Shown: piece after piece, positions 5,483-32,580 of the stretch
Layout of the letters: every line of letters starts with the position of its first letter
How positions within the stretch are numbered: the stretch's first letter is position 1
IMG/VR virus record: IMGVR_UViG_3300032214_001346
Span: 29,413 to 93,412 of that record
Origin: a virus
DNA: 64,000 bases
Direction: 5' to 3' (one strand)
Notes under the pieces: generated by a model
Databases searched by the model: none
What the model was told of the DNA's origin: nothing
What the model saw: only the letters and a program-made list of their open reading frames with translations
Made by a program: the position numbers and the translations under genes

Positions 5483-5612
5483 TGCTATACTATGGTATAG
5501 TAGTACCTACGAAACACTCATATAAGCGATCGCCTTTTCCGTTAGGCGATCGCTATTTTTTTTGATTGTGGAAACACCAAAACCCTTGAAAATCAGGGCT
5601 TTAATTTTCTGG

Positions 5613-5820
5613 TTTTAATCGTGCCAATTGCCTGTCATTGGTTTAAATCTTTGTACAGCACTAAGTTCACGTTATGGCTTTAAAAATGCCCAACAACTAG
5701 CGGCATAATCCACTTACGATAGAATGAGCATCCGGCGCAATTGTCACCGGTTTAATTGAGTTATTTTGAAGGTAAAAACTTGGTTTTTTGTCACTGGCAC
5801 GATTGCTTAAGGACAAAATT
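5613..5820. repeat. ~205-bp element with AATCGTGCCA/TGGCACGATT inverted ends, copy 1
   Basis: Both ends match 36737-36943 in inverted orientation. Confidence 0.7.
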
Positions 5821-5874
5821 CTTGAAAAAGAAAAAACCCTGTACATCAACTACAGGGTTTTGTTTTAGTATCAT

Positions 5875-6396
5875 TTAATTGAGAAGGTTTCTGATTCCTT
5901 GGGAATATCCTTTCCCTTCCCCAAGGTTTTTCAAAATTTTCCATTCCTCTTCTGACAATTTAATTTGACGAGAAGTGCCGTCAATTTTTGGCTTATTGTT
6001 GTGGGAGTTGGGGTTTTTTCCTCTCCCATCAGGTACAGGGATTTTGACCGTTAGGGTTGTTTCACTAGTCCCATTACCATTTGGTTTGTCGTAGTCGTGA
6101 GACTTCTTGACTTCCTTTTTTATCTTTATTCCCGTTGGTACATGAGTATACCAATCAGACTTTTTACAATGATTCCAAAGCTTACCGGGATTTTCGTAAG
6201 CTTCTATCATATAGATATCGTCAGCGATATCTATATCTCCTAAAGCTGTCTCAATGACATCTGGGATATCATTGTAATTTCCAGAAGCTATGCTTTTAGC
6301 ATAAGAATCTGAAAGTTTATTGTAGCTTGTGTAAGCGTAATATGCTGTGTACACAAAAGTGTCATATTTTGTCATATGCTTACAATCCATCCGCAA
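5875..6396 (-). CDS. Hypothetical protein with C-terminal RHH-like segment
   Basis: ORF; SRQIKLSEEEW...GYSQGIRNL. Confidence 0.55.
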   Translation of the reverse strand: MRMDCKHMTKYDTFVYTAYYAYTSYNKLSDSYAKSIASGNYNDIPDVIETALGDIDIADDIYMIEAYENPGKLWNHCKKSDWYTHVPTGIKIKKEVKKSHDYDKPNGNGTSETTLTVKIPVPDGRGKNPNSHNNKPKIDGTSRQIKLSEEEWKILKNLGEGKGYSQGIRNLLN

Positions 6397-26928: not shown

Positions 26929-27076
26929 GGTACAATACTCCTAATCACTTGGTTAATAGAGGCTTGGGCTGTCTCCCTTGTCTCTATATTTATATCATTA
27001 CACAATATTTTATCCTTGTCAATAAGAAATTGTCCGTATTTTAATATATTTTGTACTGAATTTTTAAAGTTGTAAA

Positions 27077-27373
27077 TTGTACAATATGAAAAGAAGTAAG
27101 CGACGTAACCGACATCAACTAAAACAGCAACTAAGGAAATTAGATGCGATCGCGCTTAAACAAATCCATAGGAGCTATAACCTTTCTTCGGCTTCCTGGG
27201 GTGGTAGTCGTTGCCCTGGATGCGGAATAAGTATTCGACCGTGCCAACTGCTTAACGCTGATTTTAGCCGGACTTTAGTAGATGAACACAGTAGATGGGT
27301 TGGGCATATTTCAGGGCATTTTCTACCTTGCAAAAAAGTTAAACGCTGTCCCGGCGAAAGGGATTGGTTTTAA
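27077..27373 (+). CDS. Small basic Cys/His-containing hypothetical protein
   Basis: CPGCG...H...C. Confidence 0.4.
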   Translation: MYNMKRSKRRNRHQLKQQLRKLDAIALKQIHRSYNLSSASWGGSRCPGCGISIRPCQLLNADFSRTLVDEHSRWVGHISGHFLPCKKVKRCPGERDWF

Positions 27374-27493
27374 AGTTTCGGGAATTGATATTATTTTTGC
27401 CATTAAAGGGATTGATTATAGTTGCATGATGTGAATCATCGTTTTCAATAATCCAATGTCTTTAATGGCTATTTTTATCCACAATCAGGTTTT

Positions 27494-27583
27494 CCAGCTA
27501 CGGAAAAACCACAAGCGGAAAAACCAGCTACGGAAAAACCACAAGCGGAAAATCCGGCTACGGAAAATCCGGCTACGGAAAAT
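27494..27583. repeat. Six 15-bp iteron-like repeats (CCAGCTACGGAAAAA / CCACAAGCGGAAAAA variants)
   Basis: Direct reading; followed by an AT-rich tract. Confidence 0.85.
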
Positions 27584-27675
27584 CTGCTATATAATAAATA
27601 TCTATTCCAATAAGTATTTAATTAAAGAATTATCTAAAGAGGAAGTATCTAAGCGGAATGCCCCTCATAAGAGGA

Positions 27676-28288
27676 TTTAAGAAAAGAACTAACACAACAG
27701 ATATCTGTTATTCCTGGCTTAAAGACAAATATTTTTAGAGAACAGATAAATCACTCATTGGATCAGGTTATGCCCGCCCGCCGCGCTTAAAAATGACAAG
27801 AAGCTATAGATAGTAAAGCGTAAATTACATCACTCAACTACAATCAAGTACCTTCATGGCGGAAATAACACCAATTCCTGTAATTCCTGTTTCTCCTATG
27901 AGTCCACTTGCAATTAACCCAGTTCAGGTGTCTTTATTTTAGTAAAGAAAGCCTTGAAAGCCTTATATTCTCGATCCGTTAAAAGTAACGTTGGAGTCGT
28001 TAAAAGTAACGTTGGAGTCGTTAAAAGTAAGGTTGGAGTCGTTAAAAGTAACGTTGGAGTCGTTGAATTTAAGGTTTCATCTATATTATTAAACAATCTT
28101 AATTAACAGTCTTAATTAACAATCTTTAGCTTAAGCGTAAATAAAAAAGCTTCTTTAAGAAAAGAACTAATACAACAGATATCTGTTATTCCTGGCTTAA
28201 AAGTAAATATTTTTAGAGAACAGATAAATCACTCATTGGATCAGGTTATGCCCGCCGCCGCGCTTAAAAATGACAAAAAGCTAATAGA
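27676..28288. repeat. ~135-bp direct repeat (27676-27810 and 28154-28288)
   Basis: TTTAAGAAAAGAACTAA...GATCAGGTTATGCCCGCC...GCTTAAAAATGACAA present twice. Confidence 0.9.
27977..28064. repeat. Four 21-bp iteron-like repeats CGTTAAAAGTAACGTTGGAGT
   Basis: Direct reading; followed by AT-rich CTTAATTAACA repeats. Confidence 0.9.
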
Positions 28289-28395
28289 CTTTGGTTCAGA
28301 ATTTATAAAGCAATTTTAAAGCGTACTTATTGAATAAATAAAAAAATACCCACTAAAGCGTGTTAGTGGGTATCAGGTTGAAACCTACAATGCAA

Positions 28396-28599
28396 CTATA
28401 ACACTGTTGAAACAGCCAAGACATCATTCATGTCTTGTCCATAATATTGAACTTCAGCGGTTCTCCGTCCAAAGCGAATATCCGCGTTTCCGCCGAAGGC
28501 TCTAATTTTCCCTGCGGACATCTTGACGTACACCTGGTTATCGTCCGTTAGGGAAAAATACCCGCAGACTGGTACATCTTTAAATTGTCTAAGCTTCAT
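28396..28599 (-). CDS. Small hypothetical protein
   Basis: AAGGAG RBS, TTGACA-17-TAGACT promoter, terminator after stop. Confidence 0.65.
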   Translation of the reverse strand: MKLRQFKDVPVCGYFSLTDDNQVYVKMSAGKIRAFGGNADIRFGRRTAEVQYYGQDMNDVLAVSTVL

Positions 28600-28703
28600 T
28601 GTTTTGTCTCCTTGTCTCCTGATTTATAAATATAGTCTATCTTATTTTTTGTTTACTGTCAAGTGGTTTTAGAAAATATTTGTTTCGCTTGCTTGCTTGA
28701 ATT

Positions 28704-28811
28704 CTTGCAATTAACCCAGTCCCTCAAGTCCGGTTTCACCACGCTGAAACACAATTTAATACTTTAACTTACACCTTGCAATTAACTCAGTCCCTCAAGG
28801 TCGATTTCACC
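28704..28811 (-). CRISPR. Distal mini-array: two degenerate 37-bp repeats (28704-28740, 28775-28811) and one 34-bp spacer
   Basis: CTTGCAATTAACyCAGTCCCTCAAG....TTTCACC variants of the main repeat. Confidence 0.85.
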
Positions 28812-28941
28812 TTTACCCCTATTATAGCATTATTTCTTATTAGGAAACAATTGCTCAAGTACCCGTCCTACAGTAGTTCCTAACCACTGACCACCGCGTT
28901 TTGAGGGTATGTTTTTATTGTTTAAATAATCTGCGATCTAG

Positions 28942-29181
28942 CTAAAAATCAACTCTACCATCACTGTTTAATTGGAATGTTTCGGCGTAGTCCTTGGCGA
29001 TGAAACTGCTTATTAAGTCTACAGTGGTTACTTCGTTCATGGTTTTGTCGTAATACTGAGCATAATCTGATATGGTTTTATAGGCCACTATTAGGTTTAT
29101 GGCACTAGCTTTTAGTTCCGGGTTGTTCCAATCTGTCTTGTTGATGAACGCCAATTCTTTGCTGATATCCATTAATTCCAT
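28942..29181 (-). CDS. 79-aa hypothetical protein embedded in the CRISPR array
   Basis: ORF with an extended -10 (TGCTATAAT) upstream, inside the duplicated 36-bp unit. Confidence 0.6.
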   Translation of the reverse strand: MELMDISKELAFINKTDWNNPELKASAINLIVAYKTISDYAQYYDKTMNEVTTVDLISSFIAKDYAETFQLNSDGRVDF

Positions 29182-29236
29182 AGCTTTTAAGGGGTAGGTT
29201 TTACCCCTATTATAGCATTATTTCTTATTAGGAAAT

Positions 29237-29637
29237 CTTGCAATTAACCCAGTTTCCCAAGGTCGGCTTCACCAATTAAATAGCACCGGCACTAATGATG
29301 AGATAAGAGTCTTGCAATTAACCCAGTTCCCTAAGGTCGGTTTCACCTTCTGAATATTGAATCTTTGATAGAAGCTAACTTGCAATTAACCCAGTTCCCT
29401 AAGGTCGGTTTCACCAACTCGATGTTTTTTATTCCTGATTTTGAATCAAATCTTGCAATTAACCCAGTTCCCTAAGGTCGGTTTCACCCAAACCGGGAGG
29501 GTTGATGGAATTTAGGTCGACACTTGCAATTAACCCAGTTCCCTAAGGTCGGTTTCACCTTTGAAGCTCAAAAAAAGAGATTAGAGTTGAATTTTCTTGC
29601 CTTGCAATTAACCCAGTTCCCTAAGGTCGGTTTCACC
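29237..29637 (-). CRISPR. CRISPR array: six 37-bp repeats (GGTGAAACCGACCTTAGGGAACTGGGTTAATTGCAAG) and five spacers of 31-41 bp
   Basis: Repeats start at 29237 (3 mismatches), 29311, 29379, 29452, 29523 and 29601, with unique spacers. Orientation inferred from the effector gene and the ATTGCAAG end. Confidence 0.97.
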
Positions 29638-31371
29638 TGCCGTATCCCAGATCGTAAGCTGTGTAAAGGTTTCATCCCCTGATTGCGCGGATCTCTTATT
29701 TTTCTTTGTTCCAGGTTTTTGAGTTTTCGCTGAATTAGCTGAAATGCTTATTGGGTAAGGTGCGCGGGTGCTTGGTAAATTGTCAAGGTTCGGATTGCTT
29801 ACGGTGTCTACCTTTGAGGTTGTTTTCACGGCTTTAGAGGTTTTTACATCCCCCCTTCCGCGCTGAGTTCCCCTTTCGGGGTTTAATTGGGAGGAATATC
29901 CATCCTCCGGTGGTGCTTGCACACCTTCCTGGTGACATCCCGTATTGGAATCAGAGCCAGGCTTTCGGGTTTCCCCATGTTCCCACGCCCAAGCGCGGTA
30001 CACTGCTGATAATTGTTTTTTGCCTTTGAGCAAGATGTTCTTAGCTGCATTAGAATCACGTCCTTCTGTGTGACCACATTCTGTACAGCGGTGAGTTCTT
30101 TGGCTCAATGCTTTCTTTATTTTAGCACCACATTTTGAACAGTCAACCGTAGTGAAATGAGCAGCAACTTTTACAAACTCTCTATCAGTATCTTTACACT
30201 TTGTTTCAATTTTACTGATTAAATCACCCAGTGCTGAATCAGCAAAACTTTTGTTTAACCCAGCTTTACGTTTTGCACCGTTTTGTTCATAGCCATTGCC
30301 GTCCTCACGTTTCTTGGCTTTGGGCTTACGGTTCAGGTTTTGTATCTTTAAGTCTTCCATCACAATCCCAGAATACTCACGCACAACTTTAGTAGATAAC
30401 TTATGGTTAAAAGCGTTACGGCTGCGGCGGATCTTTTCATGGTGTAAAGCTATTTTTTGATAGGTTTTCTTCTGATTACATCCTCCCTTTTGTTGCCTAG
30501 ACGCTTTACGCTGTAACCGTCTTAGCTTTGCTTGTTGTTTCCTAAATAGCTTAGGCGGTTCTATTTCTCTCCCCTGATCTGTGGTGATAATTGATAGTAA
30601 ACCCGGATCAATTCCTACTGCTTTATCAGATTTTGGTAATGGGTCATTGGGGATATCAACGCATACATGAAGATAGTAACCTGATGGTTCTTTAACTATT
30701 CTGGCAGGACCCCATTCTTGCCAGTCATATCTATCAAATAATCCTTTAACTTTAATTTTACCAAGTTTAGGGAACTGGACATAGCCATTATTTGAGCCGG
30801 GTATTTTTTCCGGTTTTAGTTCTTTGGATAAACCCCCAGCATTGAGATTAACAAGTGACTTGATTTTATCATTTCTCCCTTTGAATTTTGGCTTTCTACC
30901 GGGGTGTTTTGGGGTAACGTAAGCTTTCCATGATTTCTTTAAAGAATCAATTACCCCTGCCTTAAATTTAGTGGGAACATCTGCCATAAAGTCGGGAATA
31001 TTGTCACTCCTATAAAATTCACATTGTCCATATTTATCAGGGTTTTCAATATTCAAATGTTGTCTAATTTCACAGTAAGGATGACCGCTTTTAGGTCTGA
31101 TGACACCTGTACCGACTAAGCGGACTTTTTCCCACTTCTCAGTAGACTTACCTTTCTTGTCTTCAGTAACAACCTTTCGCCATTTCCACTGCAAAACTAC
31201 ACCATCAGGAATAATGCGATCGCTTATTTCTTTCTCTCTATAATATTTCTGTCTTCCTGCTAGTTTGAGTGACAGCCCTGTATTCCAAACCCACTTGAGT
31301 TTGTCTAGCCATTGATTAATCGTTTGTACCTGTGCAACCGTGGGGTCAAGTTTAAATTCAAAAGTTTTCAT
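29608..31371 (-). CDS. CRISPR-associated TnpB-like RNA-guided nuclease (compact type V, Cas12f/V-U2-like)
   Basis: N-terminal FKLDPT...WVWN; RuvC-I GIDPG, RuvC-II VMEDL, CxxC..CxxC zinc ribbon, RuvC-III RDSNAAKNI. Adjacent array; no tnpA or cas1/cas2 in window. Confidence 0.9.
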   Translation of the reverse strand: MKTFEFKLDPTVAQVQTINQWLDKLKWVWNTGLSLKLAGRQKYYREKEISDRIIPDGVVLQWKWRKVVTEDKKGKSTEKWEKVRLVGTGVIRPKSGHPYCEIRQHLNIENPDKYGQCEFYRSDNIPDFMADVPTKFKAGVIDSLKKSWKAYVTPKHPGRKPKFKGRNDKIKSLVNLNAGGLSKELKPEKIPGSNNGYVQFPKLGKIKVKGLFDRYDWQEWGPARIVKEPSGYYLHVCVDIPNDPLPKSDKAVGIDPGLLSIITTDQGREIEPPKLFRKQQAKLRRLQRKASRQQKGGCNQKKTYQKIALHHEKIRRSRNAFNHKLSTKVVREYSGIVMEDLKIQNLNRKPKAKKREDGNGYEQNGAKRKAGLNKSFADSALGDLISKIETKCKDTDREFVKVAAHFTTVDCSKCGAKIKKALSQRTHRCTECGHTEGRDSNAAKNILLKGKKQLSAVYRAWAWEHGETRKPGSDSNTGCHQEGVQAPPEDGYSSQLNPERGTQRGRGDVKTSKAVKTTSKVDTVSNPNLDNLPSTRAPYPISISANSAKTQKPGTKKNKRSAQSGDETFTQLTIWDTAGETDLRELG

Positions 31372-31579
31372 GGTAAAATAGATGCGTGGGTATGTTGGAC
31401 CTACTCCTAGTGGTGGATTGATGCTGAGAACATCACCACGCGACTAGGTTTAAATATTATAGCATTTAAACCAAATATATGACATTGAGGCAATTGAAAC
31501 AGAAACTTTACGCTACAATAATAATGTCAAGCTCAGATATATTAAGGGTGCTGTCAGTAATGCTGACAGCTTTATCATT

Positions 31580-31909
31580 ATGTTCCCAAATGCGCCTAGT
31601 TCTCTTAAAATCAGTTGGGATAATGCCATAAGTTTTGAAGCAAGTTTCTTATCTCAAAACTACCAGGGTGGTGTGGATGAGAAAGGGAATAGAAACCAGC
31701 TTAACCAGGTGGTCGGTACGCAGACTTTGACCTTGACCATTGATAGTTTATTTACTTATTCAGAGATTGATACTTTTTTAACTAATAATTTAAGTAAGCC
31801 TTTCTACTTTAATTCCACTTTGTACCGTTGCGAGACGTTTAAGTGGACACCATCTAGCGATAAGGTGTTTAAGTTGGAACTGAGTTTAATTCAAATATTT
31901 AGACCTTAA
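31580..31909 (+). CDS. Probable phage minor tail protein (lambda gpM/Dit-like), displaced from the tail module
   Basis: EIDTFL....KPFYF....YRC..FKW...L.QIFRP pattern. Confidence 0.5.
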   Translation: MFPNAPSSLKISWDNAISFEASFLSQNYQGGVDEKGNRNQLNQVVGTQTLTLTIDSLFTYSEIDTFLTNNLSKPFYFNSTLYRCETFKWTPSSDKVFKLELSLIQIFRP

Positions 31910-32025
31910 TCAAGTCTAATCGGGCTATATATTCAATAAAAATTATAAGATATTTCTACTGATATTGTGCATAACAATTAATTATATGTAATTATTAAAA
32001 ATAAAAATGTTGAGGTTTTAATACT

Positions 32026-32580
32026 ATGAAATGGGAAAAACTACCAAAACCTTGGACTAAAGAACAGTGTCGCCGTCGCTACGTTGAAAGTGAAGAGGAT
32101 ATAGGTATTAGAAAACTGGCTGTCGAGGCTGGCTTGGGTAAGGGAACTGTTGAGGTATGGGTAAGACGAGAATTATGGGTAGACCAAAGGCGACAGTACC
32201 AAGACACCCTAAAGACAACTATTCAAGTTAAAACTATACAGAAAGCATCTGAGAAAATATCAGATGAACTCTCTCAAATTGTCATTGAAAATTACAAAGT
32301 ACACAAACTTGCTAGGGATTATGTGGCTAAAATAATTGAGGTTAAAGCTAGACAATTGGCAGAAGATTTAGAACTGACGGGAGAAGAAAGAAAGAAAGCA
32401 ATTTCTCTACATAGCGCACCTGAAACAAATCAATGGTCACAGGCATTGCAGCGGTCAACAAGTGCCATTAATGAGACTAGAGGGATTAAATACTTTGTTG
32501 ATGTCAACGCAGCTGCTGATAAGCTATCTAGGGAAGGCTACCAAATTATTGATCCAAGTGAAGATAATGAAGATATTTAA
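32026..32580 (+). CDS. Probable terminase small subunit
   Basis: N-terminal HTH (RYV...GIRKLA....GTV..W...E.W..QR) followed by a helical region. Confidence 0.55.
   Translation: MKWEKLPKPWTKEQCRRRYVESEEDIGIRKLAVEAGLGKGTVEVWVRRELWVDQRRQYQDTLKTTIQVKTIQKASEKISDELSQIVIENYKVHKLARDYVAKIIEVKARQLAEDLELTGEERKKAISLHSAPETNQWSQALQRSTSAINETRGIKYFVDVNAAADKLSREGYQIIDPSEDNEDI

Follow-up and report, generated by a model that had tools for sequence, protein, structure and literature searches.

A type V-U2 (C2c8) CRISPR locus in a CL131-like cyanophage, with tail-coding DNA that probably has several overlapping roles

A phage CRISPR locus that consists of an effector gene and an array, with no adaptation genes, raises the question of where its guide RNA comes from and how its spacers are renewed. 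Such a locus is present in IMG/VR virus record IMGVR_UViG_3300032214_001346 (93.4 kb, estimated to be 94% complete), of which a 64,000 nt portion, termed the window, was analysed. Here a TnpB-like gene is followed by an array of 37-nt repeats that begins inside the final 30 nt of the open reading frame (ORF) of the gene. The reading preferred here, to which we assign a probability of roughly three in four, is that this is a type V-U2 (C2c8) locus of a CL131-like cyanophage in which the DNA encoding the C-terminal tail of the effector has several overlapping roles and in which adaptation is supplied by the host. It is carried by observations on family membership, locus anatomy, conservation, covariation between tails and repeats, and the turnover and polarity of spacers. 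The locus is genuine and is probably functional as a phage V-U2 locus.

Classification of the effector was based on curated profiles and a fold search. The 587-aa protein matched Pfam OrfB_IS605 (1.9e-21), the Cas12f1-like TNB family (6.6e-16) and HTH_OrfB_IS605, and scored 484.2 bits against the NCBIfam model V_cas_c2c8 (NF038192), above the curated cut-off of 350. PADLOC ranked Cas12u2 first (1.1e-166), with Cas12u4 at 1e-49. The protein keeps all three RuvC acidic residues (D255 in GIDPG, E339 in MEDL and D439 in RDSN) and the complete set of zinc-ribbon cysteines (C411, C414, C429 and C432, in the form CxxC...CxxC). Across 19 aligned family members, the acidic residues and three of the four cysteines did not vary. 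In the AlphaFold2 model the pLDDT (predicted local distance difference test) score was mostly 70-90 for the core (residues 1-461) and ~30 for residues 462-587. The best match in a fold search was Cas12p (PDB 9jg3/9jfs, 2e-22), followed by TnpB, Cas12f and LaTranC, and Cas12p was also the best solved sequence match (2e-29, identity ~20-22%). The effector is clearly C2c8, type V-U2. It has the size of a TnpB and its RuvC site is intact, and it is predicted to be an RNA-guided nuclease that would cleave DNA.

Everything that an earlier interpretation of the DNA letters (the sequence-only reading) had observed at this locus was confirmed, and its inferences were supported in part. The TnpB-like protein with its RuvC triad and zinc ribbon was verified by the ORF, Pfam and the 19-member alignment, the six-plus-two array by the finding of eight 37-nt repeats, and the assignment to a phage-borne, array-linked type V effector of the V-U2/C2c8 class by the curated profile. 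The first repeat (29601-29637) does contain the final nine codons (GETDLRELG) and the TAA stop, so that effector ORF, repeats and overlap all stand as noted. The precedent that it named, a V-U2 locus in Aphanizomenon phage CL131, is correct (PMC6293099).

In phage databases the sole match was this Aphanizomenon phage, with 77.5% nucleotide identity across the gene. NCBI names relatives of the protein C2c8. Close relatives were found on 13 IMG/VR contigs, in lake metagenomes and on a scaffold of Dolichospermum circinale AWQC310F (89-92% identity), and the DNA of distant homologues was drawn from a genome search and one metagenome scan; related loci are given L numbers below. C2c8 exceeded its cut-off in 6 of 401 cyanobacterial genomes sampled, and the adjacency of gene and array was kept in at least 20 loci. 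The D. circinale copies (L021/L022) lie on scaffold21, of 84.6 kb, beside a 14-repeat array, and this scaffold is likely a co-assembled or resident CL131-like phage. A close c2c8 on a phage-like D. circinale scaffold points to the host group, and the window phage, which is a CL131-like cyanophage, probably has Dolichospermum or Aphanizomenon as its host.

The origin of the guide RNA was approached by comparing tails with repeats across the family. In minimum free energy folds of the 300 nt upstream together with the first repeat, the repeat paired with a homologous site in the tail in most lineages. This anti-repeat forms one unbroken stretch in L062 and the CL131 clade, whereas one or two hairpins divide it in other lineages. 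When all tails were cofolded with all repeats, the cognate or same-family combination was best for L029, L013, L017, CL131, L065 and L069, and the summed energy of cognate pairs was -140.3 kcal/mol compared with -82.8 +/- 11.5 kcal/mol for permuted pairs, a value reached by 2 of 100,000 permutations. With one locus per repeat family (six families), the cognate pairing ranked first of 720. Complements of the last 6-8 nt of the repeat were found in 6 of 11 tails; in TnpB, Cas12f and Cas12p guide RNAs such complements are the pseudoknot partner.

In the window lineage, CAATTAAACCC is complementary to the repeat segment GGGTTAATTG with one bulge and occupies a tail position homologous to the anti-repeats of other lineages; it is the only stretch that fits the 3' part of the repeat well. 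The second element, CCTCAAAGGTAGACACC, pairs partly with the 5' half of the repeat, and its counterparts pair well in the sister loci L029, L059 and L012; the 3' part of the anti-repeat has drifted in the window lineage. From the family covariation we infer that the tail-coding DNA carries an anti-repeat resembling that of a tracrRNA (trans-activating CRISPR RNA), in the layout of Cas12n and TnpB. The literature searched gave no description of a tail-embedded tracr layout in C2c8, and no tracrRNA was found in the CL131 study (PMC6293099).

The tail is also real coding sequence and is predicted to be disordered. Its ~125 aa can still be aligned, in an uninterrupted frame, with relatives of as little as 31-35% identity, and in 19 proteins (35-79% identity) it has the same layout of a variable linker, a basic patch, the near-invariant terminal motif QL(T/S)(L/I)WD and 0-12 unconserved residues. 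The ORF terminates within the first repeat in the window lineage, as it does in distant loci whose repeats are unrelated (L062, L069, L070 and L084, with effector identities of 61, 35, 34 and 31%), and the frame of the CL131 clade closes 7 nt ahead of the first repeat. Read by eye from the flanks, five lineages have CAGCTT 24 nt ahead of the start of the repeat. Nothing past the motif is conserved and the frame ends at the first stop available in the repeat. A stop at this place is therefore a by-product, and conservation concerns the motif and how far it lies from the array. The ORF end inside its own first repeat, which the sequence-only reading had put foremost, accordingly has no special meaning, as the point of closure varies between lineages. 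Among 16 divergent loci the Q of the motif is encoded by CAG without exception, and its L by CTT in 15. Both choices are far from the codon usage of the family (P ~3e-6 for Leu, ~3e-4 for Gln), which argues for a constraint at the nucleotide level as well.

Two natural variants interrupt this arrangement. CL131 gp061 is annotated as 466 aa, and the 255-nt 'intergenic gap' that follows is the same tail interrupted by a TGA and a frameshift. The second, an L012-like deletion (L012 nt 5560-5700), drops the last ~64 codons, including QLTIWD, and most of the array. This deletion joins the anti-repeat straight to the repeat, giving a hairpin that resembles a single-guide RNA. In the chromosomal or metagenomic loci L030 and L067, CCTTGAAAACT is present just after the c2c8 stop and also occurs in the leader of a cas1-linked array of D. 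circinale; in these two loci c2c8 is directly upstream of a canonical leader and array.

The QLTIW at the end of the disordered tail resembles the bacterial clamp-binding motif QL[SD]LF. A complex model of the host DnaN dimer with residues 538-587 scored 0.63, and the best control scored 0.12. Among solved complexes 58 of 80 attained the former mark, compared with 2 of 110 mismatched pairs. At least 58% of contacts agreed between runs, and the pLDDT of the partner was 45. Residues 567-578 were placed in the canonical DnaN cleft, in contact with DnaN residues 179-184 and 375-382. The model supports an interaction in which QLTIWD would bind the host beta clamp. A putative beta-binding motif has been described at the C-terminus of cyanobacterial IS200/IS605 OrfB (Gomez et al. 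2014, PMC3971601), and a QLSLF end was present in 1 of 23 ordinary cyanobacterial TnpBs sampled; no paper connecting a clamp-binding motif with CRISPR effectors was found. We consider it possible, although doubtful, that QL(T/S)(L/I)WD is a working clamp tether that brings the nuclease to replicating DNA and that the same ~60 nt are also the end of the tracr-like scaffold and the leader-repeat junction, three overlapping codes inherited from a cyanobacterial TnpB.

The renewal of spacers was examined with 202 spacers extracted from the arrays of the window and related loci. Five phages with effectors 94-99% identical have no spacers in common. In L013, L061 and L016 distal spacers are shared and gene-proximal ones differ, which indicates that new spacers enter beside the gene and that the 3' end of the ORF stands where a leader would be. 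This polarity agrees with the presence of variant repeats at the distal end of the window array. Profiles for Cas1, Cas2 and Cas4 and for the Y1 transposase TnpA (Y1_Tnp) had no match in the entire 93.4-kb record, which extends to the whole record the absence of tnpA, cas1, cas2 and cas4 noted earlier in the window. As the phage has no adaptation genes, host Cas1-Cas2 is the presumed inserter of spacers. The genome of D. circinale, the likely host, contains two cas1 loci, one with a 29-repeat array. A hand alignment of the 37-nt repeat of that array to the one of the phage gave ~23 of 37 positions in common, among them the terminal ...GTTAA(A)TTGCAA. Insertion by host Cas1-Cas2 is plausible on these grounds. 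Of the earlier proposal that the system borrows host adaptation machinery, the turnover and polarity of spacers and the lack of phage adaptation genes fit, and the use of host Cas1-Cas2 itself keeps the status of a proposal.

The phage repeat was also considered as an inverted copy of a host I-D/III repeat; this candidate was set aside as ambiguous since the repeat ends are quasi-palindromic. Chromosomal repeats linked to C2c8 have both termini in common with the phage repeat, in the direction of the gene. No host leader motif like CAGCTT...TGGGAT was seen beside the host array examined. L018 (7730-7900) and L137 (3090-3330) contain a second repeat type (GTTTCAACTATCCTCAGTCCCCAG...) beyond the C2c8-type repeats, which makes these arrays mosaics of repeat variants, and one spacer in these stretches resembles window spacer 2 (26 nt, 92%).

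Taken as a mechanism, the preferred reading is that the RuvC-intact effector would act as an RNA-guided nuclease and that its tail DNA would supply the tracrRNA-like anti-repeat pairing with the repeats. The end of the same DNA would encode the QL(T/S)(L/I)WD peptide for the beta-sliding clamp, as the complex model suggests, and, to judge from spacer polarity, would adjoin the array where spacers enter and so stand in for a leader. Host Cas1-Cas2 would insert the spacers into the phage array.

Transcript data give a hint of RNA from the tail and array. Four lake metatranscriptomes contained contigs 95-99% like the effector gene, and in each a contig runs from the tail (starting at 30101, 29944, 29902 or 29898) to 29805 and then directly into a repeat. 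The depth of these tail-and-repeat contigs was 150-316, compared with 2-33 for gene-body contigs, and their junction is the natural deletion variant also present in L012. A promoter-like site within the gene scores 10 of 12 to the consensus and lies just upstream of the contig end at 30101, and may be the start of a tail/array transcript. The number of promoter-like sites was not above that in shuffled sequence. The site is conserved in the phage clades, but the stretch also codes for the zinc ribbon.

Several results weigh against the preferred reading. No protospacers were found in phage or plasmid databases, either for the window array or for the 27-spacer array of L018, and none in the virus's own genome, in related loci outside their arrays or in the D. 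circinale genome; an IMG/VR search with one spacer core matched only other arrays. The comparison of spacers with phages and plasmids, which the sequence-only reading had proposed, matched no target, and the anti-competitor role that it had suggested keeps the status of a proposal. No biochemical assay of any C2c8 was found in the literature searched. The best RNAduplex energies of the repeat against the gene and its flanks were not better than those of shuffled repeats, and position and covariation were used as evidence instead. Cognate pairing is weak in the window lineage (ddG -7.3 kcal/mol, rank 5 of 11); the TnpB-like overlap of gene and RNA that had been suggested earlier is borne out by covariation across the family and less so by the pairing in this lineage. 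The RNA contigs derive from a tail-deleted relative of the window phage and carry no strand or end information, and DNA carry-over is possible. Part of the conservation of QLxLWD may act on RNA or DNA and not on the peptide, and, as many clamp-peptide complexes have been solved, resemblance to these may account for the score of the complex model. Lastly, the tail is dispensable at least sometimes, given the stop and frameshift of CL131 and the L012-like loss of the last ~64 codons.

The alternative that survives best, which we regard as unlikely, is that the tail has no protein function, its frame being open only because the DNA is constrained as a tracr- or omega-like RNA and as a leader, with QLxLWD a by-product of translation. 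This would be in keeping with the near-fixed CAG CTT codons, with the constant 24 nt between CAGCTT and the repeat, with the tail-less CL131 and L012-like variants, and with the tail of Cas12n, which is reportedly dispensable (bioRxiv 10.64898/2026.03.27.714800). However, the frame has stayed open for 80-190 codons in dozens of lineages despite many indels, with the basic patch kept while its sequence varies. The third and fourth codons of the motif vary synonymously and conservatively, and the modelled motif sits in the clamp cleft with a score well above the controls, all of which argues against this alternative.

A smaller probability attaches to the view that the locus is not DNA-cutting immunity at all and is a decaying relic, or a binding-only regulator like Cas12m, Cas12c or TldR. 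An array divided by an inserted gene, weak anti-repeat pairing, truncated variants in circulation and spacers whose targets were not found in the collections searched could be read in this way, and a regulatory role was suggested by the authors of the CL131 study (PMC6293099). Against this, the RuvC residues and zinc ribbon are intact and invariant, five perfect repeats adjoin the gene, spacer content is wholly different among near-identical phages with polarised acquisition, and the closest solved relative, Cas12p, cuts DNA (bioRxiv 10.1101/2025.01.20.633832). That an ordinary mobile IS200/IS605 tnpB came by chance to lie beside a host-derived array, as the transposase labels of Pfam and of the CL131 annotation and the 201 bits against a generic TnpB model might suggest, is highly improbable given the lack of TnpA in the virus record, the 173 bits against the IS200/IS605 TnpB equivalog (NF038281, cut-off 425) when the C2c8 model passes its own cut-off, and the adjacency of gene and array in at least 20 loci with covarying repeats.

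The preferred reading, a phage V-U2 locus with overlapping roles in its tail DNA, can be placed among known systems. The V-U2 locus of Aphanizomenon phage vB_AphaS-CL131, published in 2018, is of the same family, gene-then-array order and phage lineage, and neither locus has adaptation genes; the window differs in its repeat sequence, in all of its spacers and in its intact tail, which gives a protein of 587 aa, and the direction of the array was left open in the CL131 paper (PMC6293099). Cas12n (type V-N, formerly V-U4/C2c9) is likewise small and TnpB-like and ends in a disordered tail, but is a separate family by the PADLOC values above and is actinobacterial, not cyanobacterial or phage-borne. 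To our knowledge, neither a clamp-binding-like motif nor an ORF-into-repeat junction has been reported for it. The tail-coding DNA of Cas12n contains its tracrRNA (PMC12216341; bioRxiv 10.64898/2026.03.27.714800).

Cas12p, the 'Cas12 hacker' (PDB 9jfs, 9jg3), is the nearest solved relative by both sequence and fold. It is phage-associated, its repeat is 37 nt, its tracrRNA is long and its C-terminal domain is disordered, and it has been described as an early TnpB-to-Cas12 intermediate (bioRxiv 10.1101/2025.01.20.633832). In the HMMER alignment to 9jfs, on which this comparison is based, ~100 Cas12p residues between the N-terminal helix and WED/REC have no counterpart in the window protein. The unmatched stretch contains much of the thioredoxin-binding (TB) domain that Cas12p has inserted in REC, so that neither TrxA dependence nor the GTN protospacer-adjacent motif can be assumed for the window protein. 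IS200/IS605 TnpB (ISDra2, PDB 8h1j/8exa) resembles the window system in its core fold and, on the proposed guide-RNA layout, in an RNA scaffold that overlaps the 3' end of the ORF and in a guide 3' of the scaffold. In contrast to it, the window has no TnpA or insertion sequence ends, and where TnpB has one fixed guide the window has an array of several spacers that turn over.

The V-U2 phage locus type (2018) and the ORF-tail/tracrRNA layout in Cas12n and TnpB were already known; new here are the family-wide covariation of tail and repeat, spacer polarity and turnover in the absence of adaptation genes, and the clamp-binding-like motif. V-U2 is among the last 'V-U' variants that lack biochemical characterisation. 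In the cyanophages of bloom-forming Nostocales it is accompanied by arrays that change quickly. Together with its relatives, the present locus yields a concrete and testable guide-RNA design, consisting of a tail-coding anti-repeat, the 37-nt repeat and a guide 3' of the repeat, and the phage loci show adaptation without phage-encoded Cas1-Cas2. The suggested link to the beta clamp as a host factor is comparable to the use of thioredoxin by Cas12p, and a clamp tether, if true, would tie TnpB and type V evolution to replication-coupled targeting.

Table 1. Coordinates of the features discussed (positions in the window, except for the CL131 tail)
Feature	Position	Strand	Evidence
c2c8 (type V-U2 effector) gene, 587 aa + stop	29608..31371	-	ORF, NCBIfam, PADLOC
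Folded core, residues 1-461: WED/REC, RuvC I-III (D255, E339, D439), zinc ribbon	29989..31371	-	AlphaFold2, fold search, alignment
Coding region of the disordered C-terminal tail (residues 462-587), also candidate tracr-like scaffold	29611..29988	-	pLDDT, alignment, tail-repeat covariation
Candidate anti-repeat 5' part, CAATTAAACCC	29879..29889	-	Inverted repeat I23; homologous tail position
Candidate anti-repeat 3' part, CCTCAAAGGTAGACACC	29803..29819	-	Folds of tail + repeat
QLTIWD codons (residues 571-576), beta-clamp-binding-like motif	29644..29661	-	Alignment, codon table, codon-usage test, complex model
Main CRISPR array, six 37-nt repeats and five spacers (31-41 nt)	29237..29637	-	Repeat search
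Distal array remnant, 2 variant repeats + one 34-nt spacer-like unit	28704..28811	-	Repeat search
Insertion dividing the array, 352 bp with 79-aa ORF	28812..29236	-	Repeat family D8, ORF list
Promoter-like site within the gene (TTGACT, 16 nt, TG-n-TAAAAT)	30119..30146	-	Consensus scan
Gene-internal stretch (codons VQFPKLG) complementary to the repeat	30760..30780	-	Inverted repeat, pairing counts
CL131 broken tail, reading ...HTQLTLW-stop 7 nt ahead of the first repeat	L001 (MG209611) locus positions 5786-6040		

The remaining features of the locus are minor. Five repeats of the main array are identical and the distal copy has three mismatches. The two variant copies beyond it (28704-28740 and 28775-28811) resemble the repeat of the relative L011 and are an older repeat variant, and a solitary half-repeat is present at 27907-27925. 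An Rfam scan of 27000-32500 returned nothing relevant. On either side of the insertion that splits the array lies an exact copy of the same 36-nt spacer (28812-28847 and 29200-29235), so that excision of the insert with one copy restores regular repeat-spacer-repeat spacing. On the gene strand, this duplicated unit includes TGCTATAAT, a perfect extended -10. Neither Pfam nor PHROG gave a match to the 79-aa ORF of the insert (28942-29181, minus strand), and the related loci compared do not have this ORF.

Within the effector gene, the VQFPKLG codons complement repeat positions 7-27, with 19-20 of 21 pairs in A-type lineages and 16 of 21 in a sister lineage with a different repeat. A single compensatory change was seen, T:A in the window and C:G in L009, L012 and L018. 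This complementarity could be due to chance, to pairing between mRNA and CRISPR RNA, or to the stretch having been the source of the centre of the repeat. Beyond the array, short tandem-repeat blocks occur in the region 27490-28290, with 15-nt units at 27497-27589 and 21-nt units at 27977-28076. A sequence of ~103-130 nt occurs in two copies, one after each block (27676-27806 and 28154-28283), and the region looks iteron-like.

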